Shown: positions 1-56,136, numbered from the stretch's first letter. The stretch: DNA of 64,000 bases from Candidatus Latescibacterota bacterium (GCA_965197905.1 CBDAOB010000005.1:1792001-1856000); one strand, 5' to 3'. The notes: generated from the letters alone by a model not told the origin. Numbers and translations are program-made.

Positions 1-1617
1 CAAACCCAGATTGTTCAACGTCTCCGGGTCACCGGGCGCAAGCCGTAACGCACGGTCGTACGAGCTCCTCGCAGCCTCTATGCCTCCGGCGCGATGATGG
101 GCCAGACCGGTGTTGGTGTGCGCCGCTAGGTGGAGCGAATCGATCGCAGTTGCCCGCCTCAGTACCGCCAACCCTTCAACGAATGCACCCTTGTTCACCA
201 ATAGACTGCCCAGATTGTTGTGCATTCCGGCAAGGTGAGGTTGTAGCTCAACTGCTTTTCGAAAGGCAGATTCCGCGCCGTCCAGATCTCCTCTCTCCTC
301 AAGAGCCAGACCTAGGTTGTTCCAGGTCTTTCCGTACCCCGGATTCAGGGCAACTGCGCGCCGGAGTGTTTCCACGGCAAGGGCCGGTTGACCTCGGTTG
401 AGTTGGGCCAGTCCAAGGTTGCTCCGAACCCGAAACATCCGGGGCGCTTTCCTGGCGGCATCACTCCACAGGGTGTATTCGTCGACCCATGACGTATTGC
501 GCTGCATCGAAAGCAACGACCACAACACTAGTAGAATCAACCCGGGGACCAGGAGTCGGGTGCGATGGCGCCTGGCGCATAACCACACCGTCCCCACGAC
601 GGCCAACAGCACGCCAACCGATGCCAGGTACAGTCTGTGCTCGCTCACCAGCACATTTAGGGGAAGAAAAAAGGTGGGAGCCATACAGGCGAAGAACCAG
701 GCGGACCCTATGGCTGCGGGCTCGCGAACTTTGAGTGAGCGGCAGGTAAGGAATCCGATGCTGCACAACATTATCAAGGCGGCAACCACCGCCGGGTCGC
801 CGAACCCAACGCTTTCCTCAAACGCATGTTCTACGCTCTGGCCGATCGGCACCAACAGCAGTTTTGCGTAGTAGACGAGCCCCTTTGTCTGGGTCGCCCA
901 TTGGGCGACCCACGGGCGAACCTCCTGAGCCAGGGATTTGGGCAGGAAATCGTTCATCCAGATGACACCGAGATACAGCACCGTCACCGACCAGAAAGGT
1001 AGGTGCCACAAGGTCGACTTGCCGGGGCTGATTTTCGGTCGTCGATAGAGCAGCAACAGCGGTAGGAGTGCGATTGCCGTCGACTTGGTGAGCAGGGCGA
1101 ACGCGTAGCTTGCAACCGACCACACGCGACGATATCCGTACGCCACCCCGCACATTGCCAATAGCACGCCGGCCGCGCTTAGTGAGACAGAACGGCTGCT
1201 GATGTAGTTGACCGCCTGGGTCTGAATCGGATGGACCGCAAACAAAACACCACCCCAAAAACCGACCCATTTGCCCTGCCAATTGGCAAGAATCAGAAAT
1301 GTCAGAATGGCGACGACACCGTGGATCGCGATGTTGGTGCCTAGGTATCCCCGCGGCTCGTACTCACCGGCCGCGTAATTGAAAGCGAACGAGCTGACCA
1401 GAACCGGTCGGTACATCGCCATGGTGGGCTCGCCCGAAAAGGTCTCTGGCTCCAGGAAGAAGCTTGGCAGGTTGGCCAGGCTGCGAATGTGGGGATTTTC
1501 GACAATGGAATGGCTGTCGTCGTAGTGAAACGAATTCTGGAAGCTGTTGGCGTAAACGGCGACGATCAGCGCCAAGATGGCCAGTGCGAGCACATCTTTT
1601 CGAGACGTGACGATCAT
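1..1617 (-). CDS. TMTC-like GT-C glycosyltransferase with TPRs, paralog 1 (3' end runs off the window; absent from the ORF track)
   Basis: Manual translation from ATG at 1617 (ATGA overlap with the paralog 2 stop) is open to base 1: NSFHYDDSHSIVENPHIR, MYRPV, HPIQTQAVNYISSRSV, TQTKGLVYY, PLNVLVSEHRLYL, then NNLG-type TPRs. Confidence 0.85.
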   Translation of the reverse strand, partial: MIVTSRKDVLALAILALIVAVYANSFQNSFHYDDSHSIVENPHIRSLANLPSFFLEPETFSGEPTMAMYRPVLVSSFAFNYAAGEYEPRGYLGTNIAIHGVVAILTFLILANWQGKWVGFWGGVLFAVHPIQTQAVNYISSRSVSLSAAGVLLAMCGVAYGYRRVWSVASYAFALLTKSTAIALLPLLLLYRRPKISPGKSTLWHLPFWSVTVLYLGVIWMNDFLPKSLAQEVRPWVAQWATQTKGLVYYAKLLLVPIGQSVEHAFEESVGFGDPAVVAALIMLCSIGFLTCRSLKVREPAAIGSAWFFACMAPTFFLPLNVLVSEHRLYLASVGVLLAVVGTVWLCARRHRTRLLVPGLILLVLWSLLSMQRNTSWVDEYTLWSDAARKAPRMFRVRSNLGLAQLNRGQPALAVETLRRAVALNPGYGKTWNNLGLALEERGDLDGAESAFRKAVELQPHLAGMHNNLGSLLVNKGAFVEGLAVLRRATAIDSLHLAAHTNTGLAHHRAGGIEAARSSYDRALRLAPGDPETLNNLGL

Positions 1618-3515
1618 CGAGCACTGCGCAGCAATCGCCTGGCCAACTCGACACCACGCTTGCTCTTCTCGTAAGCCGGGTTGATTTTCCAGGACTGCAT
1701 GAAAAAGCTCTCGGCCTGCTTGAAAAACTCTTGACCGTCCTCACCACTTCGCATCGCTTGCTGCCCCAAAGTGATGTAGAGATTGCCCAGATTGTTGAGC
1801 GCGTTGTAGGCACGCGGATTCAGCCCCACGGCTTTTCGGTAGGCCGCGTCGGCGTGTTCGAAGGCGCCGACGTTAAACAGGGCAAACCCCATGTTCCCAT
1901 ACGCCGCGGAATGATTCGGCAAAATCTTCAGCGCCTCGCCGTACTGTTCGATAGCCGTTGTCAGCAGCTCCTTTCGACGAATATCTCCGTCGGGCAATCC
2001 GAGCGCTCGCTGTTGGTAGGTGTTCCCCAGATTTACGAGGGCATCGGCGTACACCGGATTCAGCTCCAATGCCTTCCTGTAAGCCTCTTCCGCTTCCGCA
2101 TAGTTCCCCAGTTCGAAATTTACGCTGCCGAGATTGTTTAGAGACCGTATGGCCAGCACGTCGTCTGGCTTGACCTTGATCGCACGGCGGTAAGATGCGG
2201 CGGCCGCGCTCCAATGCCGTTTTGTGGCGACCGGGTCGAACGAGGTTCGGGCATCGTGGGTATGAGCGTTGCCCATATACAGGTGCACCCGGGGCATTTG
2301 AGGCGCCTTTGATACGGCGTCGGTCCAGAGAGTAAAATCGGTGCGCCAATCTTGATTGCGCAGGTAGGTTAGCGAGGTGAGAATCAGCAGCAGCACGGCG
2401 ACGGCAGCCATGCGTCCCTGGCGAAACCGGTGCCGGGATTCGATGGCTCGGTTGAAGAGCACCCCCAAAACGATGCAGAACGCGCCGCATGCGAGATAAA
2501 GTCGACGTTCATTCACCAGAACATTCAGCGGAATCACGCTGGCCGGCAAGAGGCTGACGACGCCCCAGAATCCAAGAAAGAACGGTAGCTTCCATCCCGC
2601 AGCTGCAAAGCGGTAAAGCAGAAACAACAGGCTGACCAGGAAGATGCCGGGCAAAATTACAGCGAGCTCGAACCCTGCATGGTGCTCGAAAAACTGGTGC
2701 TCCACGTTTAGCCCCCAGGGCCACAGGAGCAGTTTCGCGTAGTAAGCGATCGCTTTTGTTTGGGTGAATAGCTGCGTGTCGCCGTTCCTTACATGGTTGT
2801 CGAGCGAGCTGACCAGGAAACCGTTCAAGCGAATCAGGAGGAGATATCCCACGCCGGTTGCCCAAAAAATGAGGTGCCACGGGTAAAACCGATGGCGAAA
2901 AAATCGCTTCAGGTCGAACCCAGATACGAACGCAAGTTCATACGCCAGCAACACGGCGGGAAGGGTAATGACCGTGGATTTGCTGAGAAGCCCGAGTGCC
3001 AGGGCAGCCCACGATGCCAACATATACCTCAAACGCGACGCCGGCCCGGCGCGCACCAGAAAGCAGATCCCGGCGAGGTAGAACATTCCCGAAAAGCTTT
3101 CACTTCGACTGCTTATGTAGTTCACCGGCTCGGTAGCCAGCGGATAGATTGCGAAGAGAAGACCACATATGAAGCTGGCGCCGCTTCGCCCGTGCAACAA
3201 CATGCATAGCCAGGACAGCAAACAGGCGTTGACCGCGTGCAAGGCGATGTTGACAACGTGATACCCGTAAACCTCGTATTCGCCCCACGCGTAATTAAGG
3301 GCGTATGTGACCAGCAACAATGGACGGTACATGCCCTTATCGGCATCGACCGAAAACATCCCGGGAGTCGTAAAGAAGGACGGAATATTGGCGACGTCCC
3401 GCACATTGATGTTGTATTGGATGGAATGCTCGTCATCGTAGTGGAAACTGTTACTCAGGGTATTGGCAAACACCGCCGCACAAACGAGCAGGATAATCGC
3501 GCACTGCCTACTCAT
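1614..3515 (-). CDS. TMTC-like GT-C glycosyltransferase with TPRs, paralog 2
   Basis: FHYDDEHSI, MYRPLL, TEPVNYISSRSE, PLNVLVNERRLY, multiple hydrophobic helices, C-terminal TPRs; 633 aa. Confidence 0.85.
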   Translation of the reverse strand: MSRQCAIILLVCAAVFANTLSNSFHYDDEHSIQYNINVRDVANIPSFFTTPGMFSVDADKGMYRPLLLVTYALNYAWGEYEVYGYHVVNIALHAVNACLLSWLCMLLHGRSGASFICGLLFAIYPLATEPVNYISSRSESFSGMFYLAGICFLVRAGPASRLRYMLASWAALALGLLSKSTVITLPAVLLAYELAFVSGFDLKRFFRHRFYPWHLIFWATGVGYLLLIRLNGFLVSSLDNHVRNGDTQLFTQTKAIAYYAKLLLWPWGLNVEHQFFEHHAGFELAVILPGIFLVSLLFLLYRFAAAGWKLPFFLGFWGVVSLLPASVIPLNVLVNERRLYLACGAFCIVLGVLFNRAIESRHRFRQGRMAAVAVLLLILTSLTYLRNQDWRTDFTLWTDAVSKAPQMPRVHLYMGNAHTHDARTSFDPVATKRHWSAAAASYRRAIKVKPDDVLAIRSLNNLGSVNFELGNYAEAEEAYRKALELNPVYADALVNLGNTYQQRALGLPDGDIRRKELLTTAIEQYGEALKILPNHSAAYGNMGFALFNVGAFEHADAAYRKAVGLNPRAYNALNNLGNLYITLGQQAMRSGEDGQEFFKQAESFFMQSWKINPAYEKSKRGVELARRLLRSAR

Positions 3516-5496
3516 TATCGCCCGGTTCCGAGAGTCGCTGGAGTCTGGCCTTTGTGCGCCGGCTCATATCCGGGTCCTGGCTCAGAGACAACAAACGCCG
3601 GTAGGCCGCGGCGGCCTCGTTGTTCCTGCCGGCAGATTCCAACACATTAGCCAGCTGGAGGAATCCTAGTTCGAACGTCGGGAAATCTGCGACTAGCCGT
3701 TGATTCTGGTCGATGCTTTCGCTGTACCGTCGTTGCTGGAACAGCGCTACGGAGCGAAAGAACTGCGCCTCGGCCGTCGGCACATAACCTGCAAGAAGCG
3801 AAGCGCAAACGGACTCCACGTCGGCGTCGCTGCCCGTTTGTAGCAATTGTTGCGCAAGGCGGTTGAAGTTCTCCGCGGCATCTTTGCTTTCAGGATTGAC
3901 CGCAAGAGCGCGCCCGTAATAGAAAAGGGCGCTGTCGGTCCGGGATTCCTTTTCGTGGAGGGTGCCTAGGTTGTTGGCAACCAACTCGAAATGCACGCTG
4001 GTGTCCGTGATGGTCAGATAGACGCCGCGAGCACGCTCGCTGTGGCCGCTTCGTTGCAGAGCCCTGGCTAGATTGTAACGCACCTCCATCGCATCCTTCT
4101 TCTGGTGCAGGAGTCGTTCATATATAGCGATCGCCTGCTCCTGGTCTCCCATGGCATCGAAGACCGTGGCGAGGTTGTTCTGTGCCGCAGTGTGCTCGGG
4201 ATCGACTTCCAGGGCTTGCTCGAAGTACCCCACTGCCTCGGACATGCGCCCGGCATCTTTGGCATAATTTCCAAGATGCACGTACGCTACCGGTATGAGG
4301 GGGTGGGGTGATTTTCGCGCCGCGTCACTCCACAGGGTGTGTTCGTTTTCCCAAACATCGTTCCGCCGTACCACCAGCAGCCCAAGCAGAACGACCAGCA
4401 CAATCAGCGGCATCTGCAATCGTCGCAGCTGCCCCGGTGGAATTGAGCTGCCGATGATGATCAGCCCAATCAATGGCAGATAGAGACGGTGATCATTTAC
4501 GAGGACGTACAGCGGTACCACGGACGCCGGCGCCAGAGTGATCGCAAACCAGAGGAGTCCGAACAGCCGAATGCCCCTGCGCTCTCCGGGAGATGAAACG
4601 GCAACGGCAAAACTCAGAAGCAGCAGCAAGAACAGAAGGATGACTGGCCCTATCCCCGACTCGAAGAACTGGTGATGCACGTTCAAACCGATGGGAAAGC
4701 AGAGCAGCTTGGCGTAGTAGACCCAGGCTTTTATCTGGGTTCCCAGTTGCACATCCCAGGAGCGAACAGGGGCGTCCAGAACCGCCTTGCGAAGAAAGGA
4801 ACTCACGAGGGCAAGATAGAGGACGGAACAGAAGCCGTAGGGCAGATATCGTTGCCAGGTCCTCGCGATCGATCTGCCGGTCGTGAGATCGCGAACGAGA
4901 ATTAATGCGGGCAGGGCGATTCCCACCGATTTGGCGAGTAGTCCGAGAACAAAACAGCTTACAGAGCCAATGTAGGCGGTCCTCCCTGAAGCCCACGAGC
5001 GCTCGTACAACCAGAAGCTGGCTACCACGAACAAACCGGCCATTAGCTCCGAACGGCTGCTGATGTAGTTGACAGGCTCCGTTCCGATGGGATGCAAAGC
5101 GAACAATAGCGCTCCGAAGAAACAAAACGATCCGTTCACGTTCATCGACCCCAGAAGACACCATACGAGAAGGCTCGTGGCCGCATGCATGAGGATATTG
5201 ACGACATGATAGGAGTATACCTGGCGCTCACTCCAGACATAGTTGAGCGCAAATGAGGTGAGTAACAGGGGTCGATACATTCCCTTGTCAGCGTCCCTCG
5301 AGAAGAAGGCGGGATCGGTAAAAAAGGAAGGGATGAGGGATACATCCTCGATATGAGGGTTTTCCACTAGAACGTGGAGATCGTCATAGTGGAAGGAATT
5401 ATCGATGGAGTTTACGTAGACGAGCACGACGAATCCCGCAACCAAGCCGGGTGCCAGAAAGCGGCGGCTCTGTATGGCCTTGAGATCGTTACTCAT
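3508..5496 (-). CDS. TMTC-like GT-C glycosyltransferase with TPRs, paralog 3
   Basis: FHYDDLHVL, MYRPLL, HPIGTEPVNYISSRSE, VNDHRLY, TPRs; 662 aa; stop overlaps the paralog 2 start by 8 nt. Confidence 0.85.
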   Translation of the reverse strand: MSNDLKAIQSRRFLAPGLVAGFVVLVYVNSIDNSFHYDDLHVLVENPHIEDVSLIPSFFTDPAFFSRDADKGMYRPLLLTSFALNYVWSERQVYSYHVVNILMHAATSLLVWCLLGSMNVNGSFCFFGALLFALHPIGTEPVNYISSRSELMAGLFVVASFWLYERSWASGRTAYIGSVSCFVLGLLAKSVGIALPALILVRDLTTGRSIARTWQRYLPYGFCSVLYLALVSSFLRKAVLDAPVRSWDVQLGTQIKAWVYYAKLLCFPIGLNVHHQFFESGIGPVILLFLLLLLSFAVAVSSPGERRGIRLFGLLWFAITLAPASVVPLYVLVNDHRLYLPLIGLIIIGSSIPPGQLRRLQMPLIVLVVLLGLLVVRRNDVWENEHTLWSDAARKSPHPLIPVAYVHLGNYAKDAGRMSEAVGYFEQALEVDPEHTAAQNNLATVFDAMGDQEQAIAIYERLLHQKKDAMEVRYNLARALQRSGHSERARGVYLTITDTSVHFELVANNLGTLHEKESRTDSALFYYGRALAVNPESKDAAENFNRLAQQLLQTGSDADVESVCASLLAGYVPTAEAQFFRSVALFQQRRYSESIDQNQRLVADFPTFELGFLQLANVLESAGRNNEAAAAYRRLLSLSQDPDMSRRTKARLQRLSEPGDNE

Positions 5497-7387
5497 TCAG
5501 ATAGCGATCGATCTTGGATAAACGGTTCCGGACCTTTCGATAGCCCGGATTGGAATCTTCTAGCTGGCGGTAGAGCGCTCCGGCCTCCAGCAGCGGCGCA
5601 CGGCCGCTATGCTTATCTGCTCTCTCTGCCGAAGCCAGCAGAACCTCGGCCAGACTGTAGATGTAGATGGCCTCGCCGCCATTGAGCGCTACAGCCTCTC
5701 TGTAGGCGGTTCGGGCGGACTCAAGGTCTCCCAAACGCACCTGCACATTGCCCAGCCGGAAATGCGCCTCAGCGTCGTCTGGGACGAGGTTGATCGACCT
5801 CTGATACATCTCCGACGCCTCCGTGAACCTCCTACGGGCGGTGAGAGAAGCCGCCAGGTTGTAGTACGCTTCAGGAAAGTTTGGATAGAGTTGGATCGTT
5901 TTGCGATAGTAGGCAATGGCACGCTCGTGGTCTTTGGCCGCAGCGTAGATATTGCCCAGGCTGTTTAGTGCTTCCCGATACTCCGGATCAAGCTCCACCA
6001 CCTTTTCGTATTCAGCCGCCGCCGCCTGGAAGTACTGCTGGGCGTGGTTGCTGTCCGGGGCGCTCATCGCCTCTTCGTAGAGGATGTTGGCCAGGTTCGT
6101 GCGTGCCGCTCGGTGTCTGACATCCAGTTCCAATGCACGCCGATACCTCTGCTGCGCCGCGTCCCGCTTTCCTTCCAGGCGCAACGCGTTTCCCAATTCT
6201 ACATGGGCGCGCGGCATCAGAGGACTGCCCTTGGCTGCTGCTGTCCACAGGCTCACCTCGTCTGCCCAAGCGTTGTTCCGTTGGAAAGCCAGGATGAGAA
6301 AGGCCGGTAAAAGCAGATAACAAATTGCCTTGGCGGGTGCTCTGATCTGTTCGAATAAACGTGCGAAAAGGACGGCCAGAGCGACCATGGGGAGATACAA
6401 TCGATGCTCGTTGACCAGAACGTTCAACGGAACTACCAATGTGGGCGCGAGGCAAATCGGTATCCAACCCATCCAAAAGAGATTCTCCTTGGATGAAAGT
6501 CGACCCGCCAGAACCGCGAGCGACCCGAGAAACAGAAGACTCGCCACAACCGCCCCTTCCCATGGAACGTGGGACTCGAAAAACTGATGTTCCACGTTGA
6601 GTGCCACTGGCATCGACACGAGATCGACGTATTTGACGAGTGCTTTGATCTGCGTCCAAAGCTGCACGTCCAGAGCCCGAACGGGTTGTTTCAGAGAACT
6701 GCTCAGAAATCCAACTTTCCAAATGAGGATCAGATAGACTGCTGCAACACCCCAAAACCTCGCATCTCGTCGGAGTTGCCTCGCCAGGGACGCGGACTCC
6801 ACGCAGATGCCATACAAGAGCGAGATCCCCAGAAAAACCATCACAATCGATTTGGAGAGAAGGCCCAACGCGAAACAAAACAGGGCCACCCACTCCGATC
6901 CGGTTGTCTGCTGCAGCCTAAATCTGAAAGCACCGAGCAAGAAGAGCGCTGCAAGGGATTCTGAGCGGCTGCTGACGTAGTTTACCGGTTCGGTGGCAAG
7001 GGGGTGCAGAGCAAACAGGAGACTGCTGACCAGCGCGGTCCGGGTCGAAAAGCCGATCTTGAGAAGAATGCTCCAAACCAGAAGGCTGCAAGCAAGGTGT
7101 AGCACTAAGTTTGTGCTATGGAAGACCAGCGTTGAATACCCACTCCAATAGTAATCCAGCGCGTAGGTAGCCAGGAGCAACGGCCGGTACATCCCCTTCT
7201 GTGGATCGGAGGAAAACGGGCTGAGGCTGGTAAAGTATCCGGGGATGCCGTCCAGATGGCGGATATGTGGGTTTGCGACGATTGAATGAACATCGTCGTA
7301 GTGGAATCCGCCTTGCAGGGAGTTCCCATAGACCAGTGCCACTGCCAACAATAAGATCGCCGGAGCGGAGAATCGGATCGAGTTCAA
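5489..7387 (-). CDS. TMTC-like GT-C glycosyltransferase with TPRs, paralog 4
   Basis: FHYDDVHSI, MYRPLL, TEPVNYVSSRSE, PLNVLVNEHRLY, TPRs; 632 aa; TTG start overlapping the upstream stop. Confidence 0.85.
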   Translation of the reverse strand: MNSIRFSAPAILLLAVALVYGNSLQGGFHYDDVHSIVANPHIRHLDGIPGYFTSLSPFSSDPQKGMYRPLLLATYALDYYWSGYSTLVFHSTNLVLHLACSLLVWSILLKIGFSTRTALVSSLLFALHPLATEPVNYVSSRSESLAALFLLGAFRFRLQQTTGSEWVALFCFALGLLSKSIVMVFLGISLLYGICVESASLARQLRRDARFWGVAAVYLILIWKVGFLSSSLKQPVRALDVQLWTQIKALVKYVDLVSMPVALNVEHQFFESHVPWEGAVVASLLFLGSLAVLAGRLSSKENLFWMGWIPICLAPTLVVPLNVLVNEHRLYLPMVALAVLFARLFEQIRAPAKAICYLLLPAFLILAFQRNNAWADEVSLWTAAAKGSPLMPRAHVELGNALRLEGKRDAAQQRYRRALELDVRHRAARTNLANILYEEAMSAPDSNHAQQYFQAAAAEYEKVVELDPEYREALNSLGNIYAAAKDHERAIAYYRKTIQLYPNFPEAYYNLAASLTARRRFTEASEMYQRSINLVPDDAEAHFRLGNVQVRLGDLESARTAYREAVALNGGEAIYIYSLAEVLLASAERADKHSGRAPLLEAGALYRQLEDSNPGYRKVRNRLSKIDRYLNE

Positions 7388-9558
7388 TGTTTGCCTAATT
7401 CAGCGATACGATGCTCGACATGTCGCCGACGATCGTCCCTCCCATCCCAAATCCTTAGAAATGCTTGATAAACCTCCACTGCTTCGGTCGTCGAACCGGT
7501 TTTGTCAAGGCTCATAGCCAGCCCGAAGAGTGCCCTCTCATATTGCGGGCGTATCTCCAACGCCCTCCGAAACTGTCCGATCGCGTATTCGAGCTCCGCG
7601 TTGTCAGCATGAAGCTCGCCGAGTGCGGCGTGCGGCCTGGCATCGGTTGCGTCCAGCTCGGTTGCGCGTACAAAGGCGGCTTGGGCGCCATCCATCTTCT
7701 TTTGTTTCCGGAACGCTCGACCCAGGTGGTAATAATGCGCCGCGGACCCACGCCCCTGGGCGATCGCACTTTGCAAGACACTCGCTGCCGTGGAAACGTG
7801 GCTCAGCTGGAGGTGGGTGGTGGCGATGTTGATCTCTACTTCTCCTAGTTCCCTGGGCGATCTGGCAATCGCCTGCTGGTAACGCTCCAGAGCAAGCTCA
7901 TGTTTTCCTTGGGCGGACAGCACGTTGCCTAAATTGTTGTAGGGCTCTGCGAGTTTCGGGGCTAGCTCAATCGCTTTCGCGTACGCGCTTGCGGCTTCGT
8001 CGAATCTCTTCTCCTCCATGAGAATTAAGCCGTAGTTGCTCCAAGTGCTACCCTTGGCCCCATCTATACTAAGAGCCTTCTCGAACATTTGTGCCGCCGT
8101 GTCGATTTCACCCATCTTGAAATGAGCATCCCCGAGGTTGACATAGATTTCGTCGTAGTTGGGATACCAGCGCAGCGCCTCGTGGTACCACCGAATCGCC
8201 TCATTCAGATCGCCATTCTCGTGGTACAACGTCGCGACATTGTTGTAGGCATCGCCGTGGCGTGGATCGATTTCGATCGCTTTGCGGTACGCATCCAATG
8301 CTTCATCGTCCCGCCCATCCATCTGCAGAGCTCTTCCGTAGTTGGCGTGCGCCCTGCGCATCGTCGGCGCTTTCTCGACTGCATCTCCCCACAAGGTCAG
8401 CTCGTTCGCCCATATGCGGTTCCGCGCCGCCGTCTGCAACGCCAGCAGTACCAACAGGGCGACCGCTATCGGTTTCTGCACCCGGCGCAGTGCGTACGCG
8501 AAAATCCATGCTGATCCTGCAACTACCAGGTAGAGACGTCGCTCGTTGACCAGCATGTTAAGCGGCATGACCGAGGCGGGTAACAAGACGACGAGATTCC
8601 ACAGTATGAAGAAGCTCAAGGGGGGACGGCGCCCCCATTTCAAAGCCAGTAGGACCAATCCGACCACGAGGAAAAAACCGAGAATCACCACGGCTTCCTG
8701 CCAACTGTTCGACGCCCGGAACTGATGCTCCACGTTGAGTCTGTTGGGGACAAAGAGCAACTGCAGGTAGTACGGGATCGCTTTCAGCTGGGTCCACACC
8801 TGAGTATCTACGGATCGAACCGGAGCCCCAAGTGATTTGGGTAAGAATCCGGAGAGCCACAAGACAGACGTATATAAACCCAGCCCGATCCAATAGGGAG
8901 CGTGCAGCCCAATGAACGGGCGCCAGACGAATCTCGCCGAGTTGAGCCGCCGTTGCGACAGGTCAAAGACGAGTAGAACCGCTGGCAGAGTCGCGACCGT
9001 CGCCTTGGTCAGCAAGCCCAGCGTGCATGCGATCACCGCCTTCCAGCATCCGCCCACTCTGCCGCTGTCGCGATGGATGGCGAAATAGTAGAAGGAACCC
9101 AGATAGCAAAGGGCCGCCAGGCTTTCGCTGCGGCTGCTGACGTAGTTGACCGGCTCTGTACAGATGGGATGTACGGCGAAAAGGAGCCCGCAAAGCAGGC
9201 CTGCCGATCCTCCGATCAACAGACTCCCTATCCGGGCAACGAAGATCGAGCAACCCAGATGAATCAGCAGATTCACCAGGAGATATCCCCATACCTCGTA
9301 TTCCCCTGCCGCGTAGTTCAGGGCGAAAGTCGCCAACAAGACCGGTCGATACATCCCCTTTTCCCGGTCGGTGGAAAACAGCTCCATGTCGGTGAAATAT
9401 GCGGGAATATTTGCCAGGCTGCGGACAGCCGAATTCTCCACTATGGAGTGAAAATCGTCGTAGTGGAATGAACCACTCAAAGAATTGGTGTAGCAGGCAA
9501 AACACGTGAGAGCGATCGCGATGATCTGCCTGGATTCCCCGCCTGCCCTCAATCTCAC
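7384..9558 (-). CDS. TMTC-like GT-C glycosyltransferase with long TPR array, paralog 5
   Basis: FHYDDFHSI, MYRPV, TEPVNYVSSRSE, PLNMLVNERRLY; longest TPR tail; 724 aa. Confidence 0.85.
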   Translation of the reverse strand: MRLRAGGESRQIIAIALTCFACYTNSLSGSFHYDDFHSIVENSAVRSLANIPAYFTDMELFSTDREKGMYRPVLLATFALNYAAGEYEVWGYLLVNLLIHLGCSIFVARIGSLLIGGSAGLLCGLLFAVHPICTEPVNYVSSRSESLAALCYLGSFYYFAIHRDSGRVGGCWKAVIACTLGLLTKATVATLPAVLLVFDLSQRRLNSARFVWRPFIGLHAPYWIGLGLYTSVLWLSGFLPKSLGAPVRSVDTQVWTQLKAIPYYLQLLFVPNRLNVEHQFRASNSWQEAVVILGFFLVVGLVLLALKWGRRPPLSFFILWNLVVLLPASVMPLNMLVNERRLYLVVAGSAWIFAYALRRVQKPIAVALLVLLALQTAARNRIWANELTLWGDAVEKAPTMRRAHANYGRALQMDGRDDEALDAYRKAIEIDPRHGDAYNNVATLYHENGDLNEAIRWYHEALRWYPNYDEIYVNLGDAHFKMGEIDTAAQMFEKALSIDGAKGSTWSNYGLILMEEKRFDEAASAYAKAIELAPKLAEPYNNLGNVLSAQGKHELALERYQQAIARSPRELGEVEINIATTHLQLSHVSTAASVLQSAIAQGRGSAAHYYHLGRAFRKQKKMDGAQAAFVRATELDATDARPHAALGELHADNAELEYAIGQFRRALEIRPQYERALFGLAMSLDKTGSTTEAVEVYQAFLRIWDGRDDRRRHVEHRIAELGKH

Positions 9559-9559
9559 T

Positions 9560-19190: not shown

Positions 19191-19216
19191 TGACTATTGT
19201 TGCCAGATCGGTCGGT

Positions 19217-21345: not shown

Positions 21346-21349
21346 GGCG

Positions 21350-23200: not shown

Positions 23201-23207
23201 GTCAGCG

Positions 23208-24970: not shown

Positions 24971-24980
24971 ATTTCCGTTG

Positions 24981-26888: not shown

Positions 26889-26908
26889 AACGTCCAGGCG
26901 CCGCCTTT

Positions 26909-28860: not shown

Positions 28861-28883
28861 TTCCCCTTTCCTAGTAAAACATG

Positions 28884-33006: not shown

Positions 33007-33031
33007 TTGCCGCCCATTCGAACCCGAACTG

Positions 33032-33784: not shown

Positions 33785-33943
33785 CCCGTCAAGACTCGAA
33801 ACAAGCTAGGTCGAAGAATCCGTGCATCTTGTAATACGCCGCAACGGTCCACGCGAGGACACTGCAGCGCACGGCGATTAGCACCAGGCTCTTCCACATT
33901 CTGGAAACGTACCTGTCCGTCGCACTTTCCAAGCACCGCGAAG

Positions 33944-39293: not shown

Positions 39294-39303
39294 GTCGCCC
39301 TCG

Positions 39304-40334: not shown

Positions 40335-40360
40335 TTCTTTGTCATTGCGCCTGAAGCGAG

Positions 40361-45630: not shown

Positions 45631-45634
45631 TCTT

Positions 45635-46336: not shown

Positions 46337-46365
46337 ATTGTTTCCCATAGATGACCTCTTTGGAC

Positions 46366-49274
46366 TCATTTCAACAACATCATGGAACGCGACAAGATTC
46401 GATTTCCTGACTCCAACCTGTAGAAGTAGATGCCGCTGCTCACCGTGCCACCGCTCTCGTCTCGCGCATCCCATTGCAGCTCATGCCGACCAGCCGATAC
46501 CTCTCTGGCGAGCAACTGACGTACCAGCTGACCCGATATGTTATAAATAGCGAGTCGCACGGATCTTTCCTCGGGTACAGCCAGGGAACGTCCTGTTTGC
46601 CGCGGCGCCCGATACCGGTGATGTTTCCTGTAGCATTAAGTTGAGCTTCGATACTCCACTGGATGGCCGAGTCCGGATGGGAGACGCGATCGAGAATGAA
46701 CTTATTGAGACTGTCTTCGTGGGACGTGCCGGCAACGAACTGAACGTCGGGCAGTGGCAACAAGCGGAGGACCTCGCTCTCGCCGAATACGCGGATGTGC
46801 GCCGTCTCCGTATTGCTATTTCCCAGGCTGTCCCTGGCCGTGAAGGCTACCGTATCAGTACCCGAGCTAACACCGAAGAACTGCACGATGTTCCCTTCGA
46901 TAATCGCGGGGATCGAATGGTCGCCTCCAAGGATGGTGAACTCCCAGGTCAAACTCTCCACCGGGAACTCGGCTGGGGCTTGAACGAAGTTGTCCAGATC
47001 CAGCACCTCGATGAATACTCCCACGGGCACCTCGAGGGTCAGCGGAAACGGACGGATCTGGAAGGAGTCTGAAGGTGGACCGCCCGATCGAATCGTCACG
47101 AGCATGGTATCCTGTGCCGTGATACCCTCCGGCGAGATCACCTGAAAGATTACGGATTCAGTGCGGAAGGTTGCACGGTCACTCACAACGAAGGTGACCA
47201 GGTGCGTAATCGGATCTATGCCGATCTGGAGGTTGCCTTGATCGAAACTGTCCAGGACGCGCCAGCTCATCTCCTGATCGGAGTTGTTCGAGTCGTAATA
47301 GAAGCTATCAAGGTCGATTTCGCTGTGCCGCTGTCCCTGATCCAATATCAGGTCGGGGAGTCCGCCGGCCACAGGCGTTCCATCTGAGGAGTAGATCCTG
47401 AGCTTCAAATCATCCGACTGATTCCCCGGGTCCGAGACAATCAGAACTGCCTCCTCGTAGCCAACGAATTCGAACGGCGAAGCCGCCGAAAGCACGTGAT
47501 TCTCATCGACCTCAAGTACCGTCCTGATGAACGAAGGGAATGCCCAGGCAAGCTCCGAGTCGGCGTTGTCCGGGTCGTCGACGAAGTCGTCCAGATTCTC
47601 TTGAGCCGTATCTCCTCCGGGTATCAGATTGACCTTGATCTCATCGGGAAACACGACCGGTGGCAAAGCCTCCGCGGCGGTTATGAAGATCACCATCGTG
47701 TCGGAGAGTCGTTCGGGATCCACCGGATCCGCTAGTCGAAAGGTGACCCTTCCCAACCCGGAAAAATCTGGGGTGCCGGTGATCGAGATCACCAGGCCGG
47801 CCTCGGTCCGGGTGGTGTCGGTGGCAAAATGCTCTTCCGGGTCATCTACCCAGGACAGCTCGAGGCTGTCCAATGATGTGTCCACGTCCCGTGCAATGTT
47901 GCTCAACAGATAAGAACGGGTCCCTCCCCGGCTAACCTTCGGCTCCCGGTCCTGCAGAATGAACTCCGGCGGGTCTGGAAGCTCGATCACCTCGATGATC
48001 ACGCGCAAAGAATCCAACCCGCGGAAGGCATCGAGCACCACCACCTTAAGCGAGTCGGTTCCAAAGAAATCCTGCCGGGACCATACCAGTAGCTCGTGGG
48101 TGTTCGGGTCATCGTCGGCCCGCACATTTACCGTGTCGGAGAAGGCACCGAACGGCAGCACCGTAAAGTTCAGCTCGCTCTGCGGGTCGATGACGTCCGG
48201 ATCGTCGACAATCTGATCAAGATCTCTGCCGCGAAACGCAACACGCCTGTCCAGAGCTAGACCCGGCGTAAACGGACTGCCGTCCTCGACGATGCGAATC
48301 GTGTCTCGCTTGACCCCATCGGCACCGGGTTGAATCGAAAACACGGGTGGATTGTTCACCACAATATCCGAGAATTCGGTGGTCTTATTAGGCTCCTGAC
48401 CCGGGATGAGTCCCGAAGGTTCCTCGGCGATCCAGATGATCCGCTGGCGCCCCGTCCAGCCGTTCTTCGGGGTCACCTTTACGCGGTTGGTCACGGGCTC
48501 GATCTCCACCGAAAGGCTGTCCTCCAGGAAACTGTCCACAACGGAAGGATCGACGTTGGGAAGCTCGAAGGACCAGCGTATGGAATCTGGAGCGGCAAGG
48601 GTGCTGGAGACGTAGCTCGTCAGCGAGCCAATCTGCAGACTGTCGGCCTGGCCGGGTGAGAGGATCACATCCGGGATGTCTCGCAGTTGCAGCCCGGTAA
48701 CCGTGATTTCCATACCCCGGACGGTGAGGAAGCGAACCTCTTGGCCATCAGGCAGTACTAAACGGGTTTCGCGGACCGGGTTGTCGTCGATATCAATTCG
48801 ACCGTTGACGATGGGACGGACGCAAAGCAGCCGAAACGACGCTATCACGCCTGCTCCACCCCGGGTTCTCTGCCCGGCGGCCCCAACGACAGCGGCATAA
48901 TCCAGCTGCTGACCCTCGAAGTTGGAAGCGGACGGGTCGCTTTCAGGAAGCAGAAGGTTGATCTGCTCGCCTGCACCCTGAAAGAGCGGCCCCTGGAGAA
49001 AAGGCTGGACTCCGACACGCAACTCGGCCCCCTGATCGATTACCTGGAAGGCATCGCTGGGCACCGTTATGAAAAAGGCGACTCCGGACGCCTCCACTCT
49101 GCCCAGGTCACCGAACACCTCGATGGTGATCGTCTGGCCAACCTGGACCGTCGCCCGCGAGGAGTTTCCGCCGGCCTGCTGGAGTCGCAATGTTTGCGCA
49201 CCGGCAGCAGTCCAACTGAGACCGAATAGACCTATGACAAATACGGTCGGGACTAATCTATTTCGCATACTCAT
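46366..49274 (-). CDS. Secreted protein: cohesin-like domain, ~7 cadherin-like Ca-binding Ig repeats, and a T9SS-type C-terminal domain (disrupted near 46570-46620)
   Basis: Signal peptide ending AGAQ; repeats with LDDFVDDPD, NNPPVF, DPPEF. The C-terminal VRLAIYNISGQLVR...SSGIYFYRL...MMLLK is in a different frame (46366-46560). Confidence 0.7.
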
Positions 49275-49534: not shown

Positions 49535-52500
49535 TTATTTCACCAGGGTCATCTTGCGAATCTGCGAGAAGTCGCCGGATTCCAGACTGTAGAAATACAC
49601 TCCGGAGGATACGTCATGACCGGCTTCCGTGGTACCGTTCCACTTCATGCGGTAGGTACCCGCCTTCATCCGCTTGTCCGCCAGCGTCCGGACGGTCTGT
49701 CCGAGCTGGTTGTAGATCCGCAGCTTGACGATGCCCTCGGCGGGAATGTCGAAGCGGATCTCCGTGGACGGATTGAACGGATTCGGGAAGTTCTGATGCA
49801 GTGCTGCCACCTTCGGCAGGGCCGGAGCCTTCTTCACCTGCATCGGAGAGCCACGGAACTCGCTGTTCACCAGGTCACCGGAGATGATCTCCATTTCGCC
49901 CGGATCATCACCCATCGCGACGAAGCGCAAGGTAGCCAGGTTGGCGTTGCCGCTTGCCGACCAGCTTGCTCCAATGCGACCACCGGTCACATCGACGCGA
50001 CCCGGCTGGACGCGATGGAAGAAGAGCGATCCATGCGGGTTCTTGGCAAAGACGTCGCCTGCCGTCGCGGCCTTGTCGCCACCGATCAGCTTAACCCTGT
50101 TCGGATCGAAGCTGACGCTGAGACCGTAGGCCATGACGTCGGTCATGCCGGTGACGTTCAGGTTCACCTCGAACTCGCGGCCGGTCCACCAGGACTCAAC
50201 ATCGCTGAGACCGTTGAGCTCGACCACGGCGTTCTCGTTGTCACCGCTGGCGTAACCCCGCTTGAAGACAGGCGGAGCACCAAAGCCGTCGATACCGAAG
50301 TTCTGGCTTACGAAACCCAGATCGATGGCGTTGATGATGCCGTCGTCGTTGATATCCGATGGCGCCTGGAATCCAGCATCGGCCGGAGTCAGGTTCCACA
50401 GGCTGAAGACGAGGTTCGCGTCAGCAACATCCACCTGGTTGTCGCCCGTCGCATCGCCGCCCTTGAGGAAACCAAACGGCGTCGCCGGAGACAGGTTACC
50501 CAGGTTGTCAGACCCGAAGGTCGGATCGGCGGTCTTGGTCGTCCCGTTGAACAAGTTCAGCGTATCGGTACGACCGGAGATGTAGCCGTCGGTCTTCACC
50601 GTGATCTCGTAGATACCCGGGGGTATCTCCGTGAGGGTGAAGGTCCCGAAGGCATCGCTGACCACGTTGACCGAATCGAGTATCACAACCACGCCCGGAG
50701 CGTTGCCGGTAATGGTGCTGATGTTGCCAACCGCACCGCTGGTGCCACCCGTGACCGTCTCGCCAGTCGAAAACACGCCCGTGAGCGGGGTTCCTACCGT
50801 GAGATTGGGACTGGCAAACGCGGTGACCACGCCGGCTGCGCCGCTGGTCGTACCCGTAGCCGTCTCAGAGGCGGCAAAGGTACCAGTGATACTGGCCAAA
50901 CCTAGCGTTACCGTCGTATTGCCACCGGTCGAATCGAGCGCAACGTCGTTGGCGCGGATGAAACTCTCATCAGTTATATCCTGCGTGCTTCCGATCTCGC
51001 GCAAGTGCACATCCAGGGTGTCGCCAAAATTCGTGCGACCCTGGAGTGGCGCCGTGGCGATCACGCGAGCACGAGGCGTCAGTGTTACGACACCGTCGCG
51101 CGGTGGAGCAGCTATCTGCGTAGTTCCGTTGCGCATTCCGGTGATTCGATTGCCGCCGGAATTCCACGCCAACGTGGTGTCTGCAGGTGCACCGCCCGTG
51201 AAGCGCTTGACCAGGAGTTGCACCGTGGCGGCCACCTGGGAGCTGTCGCCCGCCACGTTGCCGATCACCTCGCCACCGATCCGGCTCTCTACGAAGTTCA
51301 GGTAGAGCCACTGGTCGGTGCCCTGTGTCGTATCGTTCTGCGCGATGGTTGCGGCACCGATGAAGGCGCCGGTCGAATCCTTGAACGGCTGCACACCCGA
51401 CGTAGCCGCATCCTGGTCGATGACCTCGAAGTGCGAACGTGGCACGTTCAGATGGAAAGCCATCAGGTCGATGCTGCTGGCCTGTGAGTTCGTCAAGACC
51501 TGGAAGTCGAGCGTATCCCCCGAGCTTGCGGTGAGAGCTGTGGGCCCGAGCTCAATACTGAAGATCGGGTCAGCCCCCTCGACACGCAGGGCTCCGGGCG
51601 CCTTGGAAAGCACGGCCGACAGAGACTGAGATCCGTTGCCAGTGGCTATCGAATCCACCGTGCCATTGACGAAGATGTCTTCACCGAACTGCGGATTCAT
51701 GCTGGCGGCGACGAAGATGTCGAACTCGGTTGGCGTCCCGATTATCTTGAAGGACGTCGTCTTCGTATCCCACAGGAAGAAATTCTCGTCGCTTTCACGA
51801 ATCCGCTGGATCTTCAGTGAAGTGGAGCCCGTGTAATCCTCGATCTGGGCACCAGCAGCGTTTACGTTCGTGCCGTCCAGGCTATTGATGAGAAACACGT
51901 CACCATTGCCTGCACCAGCATTGGTTTCCAATTGAGTAATTGTGGTGTACTTGTTTTTCGGTGCCGCATAGAGACGCAGGTAGGCGTCATCCGTGCCCGT
52001 GCCATCGTCGATCAGGAAAGCATCCCATTCGAGACGGATCACGTCGCCGTTGATGAGCGTCTGCCCGGACTCGGGCGGCGTCTTCATGGTTACACGTGGC
52101 AACTGGGAAGCAGGGCTCGTACCACTGCCTTGCAGCAGCACGGCACCACCCCCCTGCACCCGCGTGTTACCAAGGGTATCTGCCATGACGGCGTAGACCC
52201 ACGCCGTGTCCACCGTGGAGCCAACCTGGAGATATTCGGATTGTTGGCATTCGACGGGGCCCCGCTTGGGCTGCCCCTGAACGTCTTGGGCAACTCGCCG
52301 GGCGGGTTACGGAAATCCCAGACGAACTGGTCTCCGGCACCCTCGTCGTCCTCGCGGATACCGCCCTGGATCAAGACAGCGTTTCCAGGATTAGTGCCAC
52401 TGGTTGCCACCAGTTGCGTCGAATCGGTCCCAGAGTAATCCACAGTGGTCGGATCGATGCCGGTGTAGTAGAGAGCAATTATGGCATTTCCATCCAGGTC

Positions 52501-55500
52501 GCGATCGGAACGTCCGCGCTGCCATTCGATGGTATACTGGAACTGCGCGCCCGTGCTGATCGGTATGGTCAGGCCCTCCAACGGCGAGGTAAACTCGAAC
52601 GAGGGACCATGCCGCACGGCCAGAGGCTGACTGGAGACACCCACTGCAAAGGTGTCTTCGTCGGCCACAACCGCGTAGAGGAAGTAGGCGCTCTGTGCGA
52701 TAATCGAGTCTTGACCACTACCCTGAGCGGTGACGTCGAAATCGAACTCGATATCTTCGTCGGTGCGCAAGGTATCGGACAACTGCATCTCGGTCGCTCC
52801 CGTCAATGCTAGGGTCTGGTTCGGGAACGTGCCGGTAATTAGAGCATTGGCATTGGTCAACGCGCTCGACGTCGAGAAGAAGAGACGAACCTGAGCATTG
52901 TCGTCATAGTCGACCAATTGGAAATCGATGTTGTACGGATTGGTCTTGGCGGCGACATCGAATTCGCCCGTATCCACCGTATCGGTTGCCACTGGCTCAA
53001 GCGACTTGACGAGCGGAATGTGGCGAACTCGCAAGGCGCCGTCACTTACGGCGAACACGGCTGGATTGACCAGATCGTCACCCACCACGTAGATGAAGTA
53101 GGTGCCATCTGGGACCTTGGTCAGCGCTGCAAAGCCCAGAGCCTGCAACGTTGCACCCGGATCATCCCAGGTGTAGGTCTGCACGTTGGTGCCGGAGGAA
53201 CCTTCGACGAAGTCCGCCGTGCCGCTCGCTGCATTTACAGAGGTGTCATCCTGCTCGTCGACGATTAAGGTCGCAAACGTGCGGATATCCTGGACGTTGC
53301 TCAAACCGTTGTCGGTGTAGAAGTAGAGCTCCATCTGGAGACCCGCTGCCGGCGTGGAAACGTTGTCGTCGGAGTCGAAGAGCACGTACCGAATGCTCTG
53401 GGTCTCGTTGGCGAACCCACCCGCGCCGAGAGTGCTGGCATCCGGTTCCACAACCTGTACCACCGGCGCTACGTTGGCAGCAGCGATGTCTATGTCGGCA
53501 CTCAGCTGGAAGAAGCTTCCCAGAGGCGGCGAGAGGGTTGATACCAGTCCTCTAGCCTGTTGAGTATGAAGTACGTTGGCAACTTGGCCCTGAGCCCCAT
53601 ATATAGGATTTGTGGTTTTTCCTATAAGGTCGATGCTCTGAGAGACGTTAGGGGTCGATGTAGCAGAATTGGATGCCGAGCTCGCGCGAATGACAAACAG
53701 GTTGTCACTGCTACCTGCGTCCAGCACATTCAACTTTACGAGCAGGCCATTCTTATCGGTATCGTCGCCCCACTCGCCGAAGTTGCTGCTTCCATCATCG
53801 TCGGCGAGGCCTTCCCAATTACCGTTGTCATTCTGTGCTTCTACCTGGTTGGACGCTCCCTTGAACACGCCCGTAGCAGAGGCCGGAGTCAGTGATGCCA
53901 CCCCCATGGAGGATAACCCAATGGTCACCCAACGGCCGGTGAGGAATCCACCCGGAGCAGAGGAGGAGCCAGGTGTGGCGCCGCCGATTCCGGATCCATT
54001 CGAATTGTCGGCGACCGTTACTGGAATCATGTTCTCCAGCGACGCAGTTTGGGGGTGTACCGGGTTGTAGGTCAGTATGTACTGGTTTCCCCCTACCGGG
54101 ATCGATCGGTCTTCGAAACTAAGGGCGCGACCGATGACCTTGAAGAACGGCTGCGGCGCTATGCTGCCCATACTCTTGGCCGAATAGCCTCTACCCGAGT
54201 TATCGGCGGCAGCTTGATTGAGAATGTCCGTGCCTGAATTCATAGGCGACCCGCCCACAAAAGAGAGGTAGACGTTGTTGTCGCCCGATCTCATAGAAAT
54301 CTTGGGGGCAAACAGGTCGCGGAACTTGACCCCGACGCCGTCGTCAAAACGGCCCGTACCAGTAGTGTTCATTCCAGTAGCCACAACGGTCGGCAACTCC
54401 CATTCTACGCCGTTGAAACGGCTGTAGTAGAGAGAGTTCGCCTGACCCGAGCTGCCGGCTCCAAAAACCGCAGCGGTCGCAGCCCTCAGTGTTTTTGTGG
54501 AAAGACCACCGGAAAACACGACATGCAGATCGCCCCGCGTCGATAGACGGTCATCGACGACCGCGGCGATCCGGTCCACGAAACCCCAGTGCTGCTCGAT
54601 CTGCCACTTGGAGTTGTTCATGAATAGTTGGCCGGAACTGACAACTTCGCCCGTTATACCCGCTCCTTGCGGGAAAGCGAAGCTCTGCGTAGTCGGCCAG
54701 CCACCGCCGGGTCCGATTACACCGTCGTAGGCGTAGAAGTTGTAAGCGATATTCTCGTCTTCGAAGGTTGTAGCGGCCGAAGCATCGGTGTATTTCCACA
54801 AGGCATATATACGGTCGGGGGTTCGTTGCCGATCAACCACCACCGTGGGGAAGAGATGCACGCCGCGCCCGGCGCCGGCTGCCCCCGTATCGGCGCCTTC
54901 CAAGGATCGGTCGGAGCTGCCCGCTACGTAACCCGCTGCGGGAGATCCACCGAAGTTGGTGTTCGTCATATCGTCGGCGAACGTACCAACCAGGGTACCT
55001 CGCTGACCTTGATCCCATCCACTGGCACCTACCTGATCCCAGAGAGTCGCCGGGACCGATTTGTGCACGATACGGTCGTCAGTGGCGGCGGCGGCGTGGG
55101 TCTGGTACCATACGACATGAAGAACATCGTCGTCGCCCACGGCAATGTCAGGCGTGAGACCGCGGACCGCATCCCGGTCGATGCGGACGCCGCCACGACT
55201 GCTTGTCTGTCCGGTAGATCCGATGGTGACGGCCTGCGCCGAACCTAGCTGCAGACTGTCGTTGTCGATCTTAGCCAGAATGACGTCGTTGGCCACAGAG
55301 AGTGCTGCAACATCCTGCATCTGGCGGTTGTAGACGACAAAAATATCGTCGGTGGAGGTGACGGCCATTCTGGGAAAGCCAGTTTTCCGTGCCGAGACGG
55401 TTGCCGTGTCATTCAAGACAACCGCGTTGTTGGCCGGCAGCCAGGAGCTACCGCCGTCGTTCGAATAGTTAAAATAGATATTGTTGTACGCATTGATGGA

Positions 55501-56136
55501 GCGCCCGCCCGCAATAACTGCAGCGTTTGTGATGGTTTGATTGTCGCGCCCATACCCCCCGAGACCATCCGGAGAATTGTCCATCGCGTAGACTACGCGA
55601 GGATTACCCTTGCTGTTGATGACGATGTCGAGCGTCGAGAACCCGCCCGTTCCGGACAGGTTGGGCGTGAGCATATCGAAACGCAACGTGCCCGATACGG
55701 ATACGGTGTCAGAAAACGTCTTGCCGCCGTCCAGACTCTTAGCATAAACGACGCCGTAGACGGGCGTTGAGGTTGAAACCGAAAAATCCGCGATACCGCG
55801 CTGCTGAACCCAGGCGCGGTGAATGATCCCGTTGTTGTCGATGGCCATGGCCTGATCCATATACGCCGCTTCGCTTGCGGTACTGAAAAAGCCTTGTGCC
55901 TGTTCGACTTTCTGGAAATTGCCAATGACCGGGTAGGTCTCATTGGCCGACTCGCTCAAATCGACAAGAATGCTGATATCCTTGTCGGACGCAAACGAGG
56001 TTTTGGTCGTGCTGTCAGAGGGGGAAAATCCCACTGGCGTCTGATTTTCGAAAACCGGCTGGGCAAAGGCATTCGTACCCAGAGCGATCGCGAAAACGAC
56101 CATCAGCGTTTGAAAAGACTTAAGCCTTAAGCTCAT
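49535..56136 (-). CDS. Giant (~2200 aa) secreted surface/S-layer-like protein with Asp-box region, internal beta-sandwich repeats, cohesin-like domains, dockerin and T9SS-type/FlgD-Ig C-terminal domain (1-nt frameshift near 52230)
   Basis: AGGAG RBS and MSLRLKS...NAFAQ signal; SLDGGKTF and SNDGGSSW Asp-boxes; GDATGDNQVDVAD...SDINDDGIINAIDL dockerin; QNFPNPFNPST...SSGVYFY...KMTLVK. The two ORFs join by one base at NPN(I)LQVGSTVDTAW. Confidence 0.8.

Follow-up and report, generated by a model that had tools for sequence, protein, structure and literature searches.

A 64,000-nucleotide stretch of a Candidatus Latescibacterota genome (G000:C5:1792001-1856000; hereafter the window, with G000 its own genome) encodes twelve proteins related to TMTC1-4, the protein O-mannosyltransferases of animals. 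Each of these TMTC-like proteins joins a type C glycosyltransferase (GT-C) membrane domain to C-terminal tetratricopeptide repeats (TPRs). Their genes are retained and lost together with two families of large surface proteins, one huge and one cadherin-like, that carry C-terminal domains (CTDs) of the kind found on type IX secretion system (T9SS) cargo. The reading we favor, with somewhat better than even confidence, is that the locus is a dedicated periplasmic O-glycosylation module for these large T9SS-exported proteins. Its observed base is the GT-C fold with an Asp-Asp (DD) pair in the first loop, the TPR tails, twelve ordered clades, an operon running from the surface genes to the glycosyltransferase gene GT2b, and the joint retention and loss of these parts.

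An ordered array retained and lost with two surface proteins

Nine of the genes (a-i) run head-to-tail on the minus strand at 1-18040, with a GT4 glycosyltransferase gene between g and h, as delimited by open reading frame (ORF) calling and alignment. Their products are 31-45% identical in pairwise comparison and carry the motifs FxYDD/FDD, MYRP, HP..E.VNY.S.RSE and NE[HR]RLY. A preliminary description of this DNA had reported nine co-oriented TMTC-like genes with these motifs. The tandem nine are indeed there; the total is higher, as three further members (k, l and m) lie beyond position 56136.

We surveyed all 76 genomes of the window's family, calling the array clade at E<=1e-90, and found the array in 38. 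The huge-protein family occurs in 36 of these 38 genomes, the cadherin-like family in 34 and GT2b in 33; none of the three occurs in any of the 38 array-less genomes. Most misses among array-bearing genomes are fragmented assemblies, and 27 of the 38 array-less genomes are assembled in no more than 10 contigs. Both array states occur within genera g13, g21 and g9. A second locus about 750 kb away (C5:2576287-2601948; L118, L119), where two huge-protein paralogues and a split cadherin-like paralogue lie near porU and porV, follows the same pattern: its surface-protein paralogues are gone from array-less genomes too. Array-less genomes keep SprA (3/3 tested), PorU (3/3) and 58-150 FlgD-Ig genes (4/4), and often a weak TMTC-like gene. 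Because the genomes are kin and are compared here without a species tree, we read these counts as a strong pattern and not as a P value.

Gene order is conserved as well. All 14 loci with GT2b keep the order huge protein, cadherin-like protein, TPR lipoprotein, 494-amino-acid (aa) exported protein, small lipoprotein, (HNH), GT2b, GT4 and methyltransferase. Of the seven loci without GT2b, four end earlier, two are distant and L091 matches only the cadherin-like protein. In the same survey, 5 loci have paralogue k facing the huge gene. The array is both linked to the secreted proteins and co-occurring with them in relatives, a check that the preliminary description had asked for. Within the operon, the 494-aa protein (45-95% identical across relatives, always between the surface genes and GT2b) has no Pfam or NCBIfam match, and the HNH-domain gene (43156-43665) is present in some relatives' operons and absent from others.

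A search of the GTDB phylum, which did not take in the phylum Gemmatimonadota itself, found the array clade in 32 of 68 further members of the window's family and in none of 84 genomes from 13 other families. Named homologues carry the label Ca. Latescibacterota or, in some cases, Gemmatimonadota. The wider family is huge: the array profile matches 115,425 protein clusters (50% identity level) at E<=0.001.

Twelve positional clades with distinct TPR tails

A FastTree phylogeny of 114 transmembrane (TM) domains from 13 genomes, restricted to domains with at least 330 aligned positions and leaving out the window's g and i, places 107 of 109 array sequences by array position into twelve clades (local support 0.88-1.0); two G007 sequences lie outside their expected clades. 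The order a-b-c-d-e-f-g-(GT4 or AsnB)-h-i beside lepA recurs across genera. This tree of positional clades rules out recent tandem duplication of the array.

TPR tails follow the same division. Their lengths are typical of the clade, from about 150 aa (k) to 330 (a, e), and for 100 of 100 tails the best match outside their own genome and its closest relative belongs to the same clade. A preprint reports that the TPR domain of TMEM260 suffices for acceptor-peptide binding (bioRxiv 10.64898/2026.03.17.711096), and an acceptor-binding TPR role has been proposed for TMTC1-4 as well (PMC11292533). We infer that each paralogue may have its own acceptor.

A GT-C fold and a TMTC-related subfamily

A model of paralogue l built on 150 sequences (pLDDT 94.5, pTM 0.93) confirms, at the level of prediction, that the TM domain has the GT-C fold anticipated for it; with the TPRs that follow, this is the architecture of the TMTC/GT105 enzymes. 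The best fold matches are AglB and ArnT (both Z 21.4), Pmt4 (20.6), Pmt1-Pmt2 (20.4) and STT3 (20.1), at root-mean-square deviations of 4.2-4.8 (4.2-4.4 over 316-345 aligned residues for AglB, ArnT, Pmt4 and Pmt1-Pmt2); ALG12, ALG3 and AftB are likewise among the matches. No TMTC or TMEM260 chain was among the fold-search matches, and neither the TM domain nor the repeats nor the N-terminal domain had a significant match in sequence and profile searches of the PDB. A single-sequence model was discarded (pLDDT 48).

Kinship to eukaryotic TMTCs is detectable at the sequence level, indirectly but consistently. The array matches a DUF1736 cluster in Atlas (score 0.92, rank 22 of 30) that is 85% DUF1736, 98% Eukaryota and dominated by chordates. 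It also matches an unlinked paralogue in G000, C4:72049-73785, in a 99.9% profile match over 373 columns, and this paralogue scores 26.8-29.3 bits against the DUF1736 cut-off of 27. Some homologues are already named 'protein O-mannosyl-transferase' by the Joint Genome Institute, and one paper mentions TMTC homologues 'even among prokaryotes', at that point without a function (PMC7801869). Unlinked TMTC-like genes in G000 lie at C3:240607, C4:72049, C4:1538432, C5:1152366-1156510 and C5:1226316-1228894; of these, one lies after a GT2 gene (C4:1537616) and another comes closest to eukaryotic DUF1736.

We counted the seven TMTC motifs given in Table 4 of PMC7801869 across the 109 array sequences. 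The M1 DD in loop EL1 and the His that follows are present in 109/109, the [YF]RP of M2 in 108, and an RxE/D pattern corresponding to M3 RxD, mostly with Glu, in 99. Motif M7 (ERxxY) retains Tyr in 109 and Glu in 99; its second position is Arg in 46 and His in 61, with an invariant Arg one place later. This variation is clade-specific, the sequences dividing into an ERRLY type (clades b, e, g and h) and an EHRLY type. Judged by these motifs, the array enzymes are a TMTC-related subfamily, not TMTC proper.

Surface proteins bear T9SS signals

Both surface proteins have a signal peptide, judged by eye, and their families end in FlgD-Ig/T9SS-type CTDs, which bears out the earlier report of two large secreted proteins upstream of the glycosyltransferase genes. 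The type A CTD scores 36.1 bits against TIGR04183 (cut-off 23), marking T9SS cargo, and G000 encodes SprA and PorU (both over cut-off) and PorV. Big_9 repeats occur in 18 of 19 cadherin-like orthologues (best E 3.8e-13; Atlas 0.96), which places them among bacterial cadherin-like proteins; the window copy alone scores below the cut-off for repeats. The cadherin-like repeats claimed earlier therefore hold in the Big_9 sense, for a gene that is itself internally deleted and has its CTD out of frame. In the huge protein, dockerin- and cohesin-like domains precede the type A CTD. It had been called Ser/Thr-rich, and its Ser+Thr content of 17.5% is high (14.0% in the genome's CTD proteins, 10.8% in cytoplasmic ones); it is not exceptional, lying within the upper range of the CTD set. 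This cargo provides the best candidate targets of the array enzymes.

Other features of the pair deserve mention. The N-terminal domain of the cadherin-like protein (48690-49199), which has no family match, resembles an internal domain of the huge protein (about 51350-51540; profile probability 89%, 64 columns). Between the two genes, a 14-pair hairpin with a T-rich tail (49480-49511) is likely a terminator or stabilising stem. A third, more distant pair of surface-protein paralogues lies at C5:2135342-2150017.

Candidate donor synthases and tailoring genes

Both GT2 enzymes, GT2a and GT2b, have C-terminal hydrophobic segments. They score best against AglJ (86.9 and 116.8, cut-off 325); the ArnC, PgfS and PpgS models are also among the best matches, all below cut-off. 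Two GT2s are present, as described earlier; with AglJ/ArnC-type models best and below cut-off, the label 'DPM1-like' given to them does not imply mannose.

The large glycan-tailoring cluster is also as described. Its core (GT2a, GT2b, two GT4s, a methyltransferase and AsnB) is in all five relatives' loci compared, and the middle is exchanged. An array that stays constant while the central glycan genes vary is as expected for a constant acceptor. The tailoring enzymes belong to classes that act on cytoplasmic substrates, which puts a sugar carried by a periplasmic protein out of their reach. Either the donor would be a tailored lipid-linked oligosaccharide, or the genes would make a separate polysaccharide such as the T9SS anchor (PMC11969387). 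The former fits the AglJ-like best matches, below cut-off as they are, and the Wzx genes inside three relatives' loci. The idea that the tailoring genes serve a TMTC-style transfer of single sugars is not supported in that form, as it would need either a lipid-linked glycan before flipping or a separate polysaccharide.

Flipping itself appears to be encoded elsewhere. G000 has a Wzx-like gene and a 624-aa GT-C (within the locus in relatives) at C4:1363414-1367520. No GtrA-type flippase was found in G000 (91% complete), and a scan of the window's 46 ORFs plus 42 chosen ones, mostly from relatives, whose ORFs it covered in part, turned up no Wzy or WaaL. Wzz/Wza-like genes lie just beyond lepA.

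In the pathway we propose, GT2b and/or GT2a would attach a sugar to polyprenol-phosphate on the cytoplasmic side of the membrane, where GT4, amidotransferase, methyl- and acyl-transferase genes might extend and tailor it. The lipid-linked donor would then be flipped by a flippase encoded outside the window. As the surface proteins leave Sec, the TPR tail of each paralogue would bind a different segment or domain, and the GT-C domain would transfer the sugar or glycan to Ser/Thr on a beta-strand. The glycoproteins would exit via SprA/PorV and be anchored by PorU.

A D-S/T motif probably independent of the array

Bacteroidota have a general O-glycosylation sequon, D-[ST]-[AILVMT]; for T. forsythia, the transferase that initiates it is said to be unknown (PMC8729774). 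The cadherin-like protein carries 17 such sites (4.6 expected), rank 3 of 7982 frames and borderline after multiple testing. Overall the motif is not enriched in the CTD (1.03), lipoprotein (0.98) or secreted (1.02) sets and is mildly depleted in the cytoplasmic set (0.88). We rejected it as evidence for the array, as enrichment is as strong in array-less genomes: a TPR lipoprotein distinct from that of the operon (orthologous to L114, below) has 10-20 sites there, with 1.6-2.8 expected, in 4/4. This makes the array an unlikely initiator of a D-S/T system.

All five genomes of the family that were tested have a TMEM260-like (PF11028) gene, as does the Bacteroides thetaiotaomicron control. In G000 it lies at C4:378691-381303, beside an LPG_synthase_TM gene, the pair spanning C4:378691-383317 (L125). 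The sequences suggest Bacteroidota-type general O-glycosylation in Latescibacterota, with the TMEM260-like gene as candidate initiating transferase, a proposal that our literature search did not find made before. Given enrichment without the array and a widespread TMEM260-like gene, the D-S/T sites more likely belong to a general, array-independent system or are structural. In Big_9 repeats, the motif may have a structural role. The cadherin-like protein has 34 conserved Ser/Thr columns, 12 of which follow a conserved Asp; the 22 non-D-S/T columns, several at strand ends, are candidate array sites.

Dense D-[ST] motifs occur elsewhere in the genome. The TPR lipoprotein at G000:C5:2239624-2242545 (L114) and its orthologues L120-L124 have 10-20 D-[ST]-hydrophobic sites (1.6-3.0 expected) in 6/6 genomes, and an Ig-repeat protein at C5:2146718-2150014 has a run of P-D-T-T-G-T repeats and ranks 2 genome-wide for D-[ST] sites.

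The locus is probably decaying

The earlier claim that the locus is complete is not supported: six genes are broken in G000 (TMTC-like f, g and i, one AsnB-type gene and both surface genes), and the Wzx-type flippase gene of G000 is on another contig. The cadherin-like gene is missing about 1.39 kb relative to G002, leaving an out-of-frame CTD remnant at 46366-46632, and the huge gene is split by a frameshift near 52230. Sister genome G002 has different lesions, including an insertion of about 1 kb in g, and intact versions of the locus occur in G001, G015 and G075. Flanking housekeeping genes are whole, each aligning as a single piece. Of the breaks, a short-read comparison covered the AsnB split and the one at 52229. 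The AsnB split, at a T9 run near 35840, is carried without gaps by short-read contigs in 4/4 runs (two samples); the break at 52229 is the majority form in one short-read sample and absent from the other. Assembly error as the sole cause is not supported by the intact flanking genes and the short-read contigs. The differing lesions in G000 and G002, the whole flanking genes and the short-read contigs together indicate that the locus is probably decaying in this sub-lineage.

In three genomes from two genera (the window, the G002 locus and L111:12798-14692), the AsnB-type gene breaks at the same W-x-F-F run; the alleles are about 53-60% identical. G015 and G075 have the gene intact. Candidate explanations are slippage, -1 recoding or phase variation.

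Features of the window (positions counted from its first base)
Feature	Position	Strand	Remarks
TMTC-like paralogue a	1..1617	-	3' end before window start; lepA next
TMTC-like paralogue b	1614..3515	-	ERRLY type
TMTC-like paralogue c	3508..5496	-	
TMTC-like paralogue d	5489..7387	-	
TMTC-like paralogue e	7384..9558	-	long TPR tail, ~332 aa
TMTC-like paralogue f	9560..11403	-	frameshift near 9863, in TPR tail
TMTC-like paralogue g	11400..13287	-	FDD; in-frame TAG at 12550 and frameshift near 12360
GT4 glycosyltransferase within array	13287..14465	-	replaced by AsnB-type gene in some relatives
TMTC-like paralogue h	14462..16378	-	
TMTC-like paralogue i	16260..18040	-	at least 3 frameshifts
Semi-conserved tailoring block	18060..27089	-	GT4, methyltransferase, PGA_cap-like, AsnB-type, M55 peptidase, polysaccharide deacetylase, AsnB-type
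Variable tailoring block	27832..35035	-	FemAB-like, hexapeptide acetyltransferase, radical SAM, methyltransferases, GT4-methyltransferase fusion, Trm112-methyltransferase
AsnB-type amidotransferase	35245..37157	-	split near 35840
Conserved core	37158..42272	-	GT4, GT2a, Gfo/Idh dehydrogenase, methyltransferase, GT4
GT2a, polyprenol-phosphate glycosyltransferase-like	38349-39293	-	inside conserved core
GT2b, AglJ/ArnC-type polyprenol-phosphate glycosyltransferase	42269..43150	-	single-copy; candidate donor synthase
Three conserved envelope genes	43745..46474	-	between GT2b and surface proteins
Small lipoprotein-like gene	43745-44173	-	
494-aa exported protein	44146-45630	-	no family match
TPR lipoprotein-like gene	45635-46474	-	
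Cadherin-like (Big_9) repeat surface protein	46366..49274	-	~1340-1480 aa in relatives; internally deleted here
Huge surface protein	49535..56136	-	~2110-2210 aa in relatives; dockerin/cohesin-like end and T9SS type A CTD
TMTC-like paralogue k	57245..58954	+	divergent from huge surface gene
TMTC-like paralogue l	60023..62032	-	paralogue used for structure model
TMTC-like paralogue m	62344..64000	-	start past window end

In several genera, cysK, a small gene that we take to be MoaD/ThiS-like, another that we take to be Mov34/JAB-like and a second cysteine synthase gene are interspersed among paralogues k, l and m (59109-62343 and just beyond the end of the window). A plasmid search gave no match, and a promoter and terminator scan found no excess over shuffles.

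Weighing the alternatives

Several observations weigh against a dedicated O-glycosylation module. Enzymatic activity of the array is itself a prediction from sequence and model, and twelve enzymes are many when the candidate substrates number about two to six. At the top of the fold matches, the lipid-acting ArnT ties with protein-acting enzymes, so the fold cannot tell protein from lipid acceptors. Pfam TMTC_DUF1736 matches 0/10 window TM domains. Among the 109 array sequences, SHKS of M2, a predicted mannose contact, is absent (0/109; SHxS[YF]RP 0/109), the M4 Lys (EL3) is present in 109 but the M4 Glu in just 22, the DW of M5, which belongs with the M4 KE to the predicted metal site, is replaced by E/D-H (E 70, D 25; H 94), and the M7 Arg position is His in 61. 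With M2, M4 and M5 changed, M7 changed in part and no DUF1736 match, mannose cannot be assumed, and the earlier claim of a mannose donor from a DPM1-type enzyme is not supported, the predicted mannose- and metal-binding motifs being altered. The cytoplasmic tailoring enzymes misfit single-sugar transfer of the TMTC style, and the D-S/T enrichment of the cadherin-like protein does not point to the array. G003 and G078 bear the array and match neither surface protein; in G078, which is 96% complete, three array genes and GT2b are present. The genomes compared are kin and so not independent, and several surface loci could disappear at once in a shift of lifestyle.

The main rival, unlikely in our view though deserving of real weight, is that the GT-Cs act instead on carbohydrate or lipid as a periplasmic assembly line, each paralogue adding one residue or branch, with the TPRs as scaffolds. 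The glycan could be an LPS (lipopolysaccharide)-like anchor tied to T9SS cargo by PorU, a capsule or the core glycan that a different enzyme has put on D-S/T sites. We assume here a mapping of Wbp/Vim enzymes to cluster genes. On that assumption, the Gfo dehydrogenase, acetyltransferase, amidotransferases and FemAB-like gene resemble the Wbp/Vim route to T9SS linking sugars (PMC11969387). The M5 E-H pair resembles the ArnT H-E-H metal site (PMC7801869), ArnT ties for best fold with ALG12/ALG3/AftB also matching, a fixed order of twelve suits sequential steps, and Wzz/Wza-like genes lie just past lepA. Yet the array is unchanged while glycan genes are swapped, and TPR tails that differ by clade suggest that they bind proteins. 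PorU and more than 50 CTD genes persist in array-less genomes, so the anchor there does not depend on the array, and Wzz-like genes persist in 4 of the 5 array-less loci examined.

Two further readings concern the clients. Twelve distinct TPR tails, about 90 CTD-bearing ORFs in the genome and three further conserved envelope genes in the same operon would suit O-glycosylation of many envelope proteins, one client class per paralogue, with the two big proteins as some of the clients or co-regulated passengers. We think this improbable: most CTD cargo survives array loss, whereas the two surface families vanish wholly, unlinked copies included. We give very little credence to the absence of any enzyme-substrate link, with a shared ancestral envelope island lost by block deletion or lifestyle change. 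Physical linkage would by itself lead one to expect joint loss, G000 and G002 show decay of the locus through different lesions, and related genomes are not independent samples. However, joint loss reaches the second locus about 750 kb away, the order from surface genes to GT2b is kept in 14/14 loci with GT2b, and in 5 loci the huge gene has paralogue k facing it. The dedicated module remains the reading we prefer.

Relation to known systems

Animal TMTC1-4 (CAZy GT105) are Dol-P-Man protein O-mannosyltransferases of cadherin EC domains. Like the array enzymes, they combine a GT-C domain with C-terminal TPRs and comprise several isoenzymes of differing TPR number; their DD, YRP, EL2 Arg, EL3 Lys and EL5 E..Y are conserved in the array, whose candidate substrates carry cadherin-like Ig repeats. 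In contrast to TMTC1-4, the array would work in a bacterial periplasm with twelve paralogues, has SHKS, KE, DW and, in part, the M7 Arg position altered, lacks a DUF1736 match, and is accompanied by AglJ/ArnC-type GT2s; its candidate substrates are T9SS cargo whose Big_9 repeats have no sequence match to solved cadherins. TMEM260 (GT117) likewise pairs a GT-C domain with luminal TPRs that bind an extended substrate peptide according to the preprint cited above, but it is a separate family with an extra Rossmann-like domain, and G000 has its own TMEM260-like gene elsewhere.

Bacteroidota O-glycosylation at D-(S/T)-(A/I/L/V/M/T) is echoed by motif enrichment in the cadherin-like protein and some other exported proteins, but that enrichment persists in genomes without the array. 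In archaeal S-layer glycosylation, AglJ primes a lipid-phosphate glycan and AglB carries out the transfer. The likeness extends to GT2s that score best against AglJ, AglB tying for best fold, and variable tailoring genes beside surface-protein genes; the AglJ scores, however, are far below cut-off, one AglB stands against twelve TMTC-like enzymes, and N-linkage against presumed O-linkage. ArnT/GtrII-type modifiers of lipid A and O-antigen share the fold and the pairing of GT2 with GT-C, but form no ordered arrays of twelve, and we know of none with TPR acceptor-binding tails. Our literature search, which reached few subscription papers, found no characterised bacterial TMTC and no description of this locus.

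Implications

Co-evolution, and not adjacency alone, singles out a donor synthase, a set of candidate substrates and twelve enzymes with their own specialisations, and reduces the question of what bacterial TMTCs glycosylate to a small reconstitution experiment. The system could give a soluble-substrate model for how TPRs choose cadherin-type domains, described as unresolved for the human enzymes (PMC11292533). If the GT-Cs instead build a carbohydrate or lipid glycan, this would still be an unusually long periplasmic GT-C assembly line. More tentatively, and as a conjecture that we regard as doubtful in full, each of the twelve TMTC-type enzymes might recognise a different domain or strand of the cadherin-like and related T9SS surface proteins via its own TPR tail and transfer whole tailored oligosaccharides linked to lipid-phosphate, and not single mannose, alongside a TMEM260-like general D-S/T system. 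If true, domain-specific TMTC and TMEM260 glycosylation would both operate in one bacterial cell.

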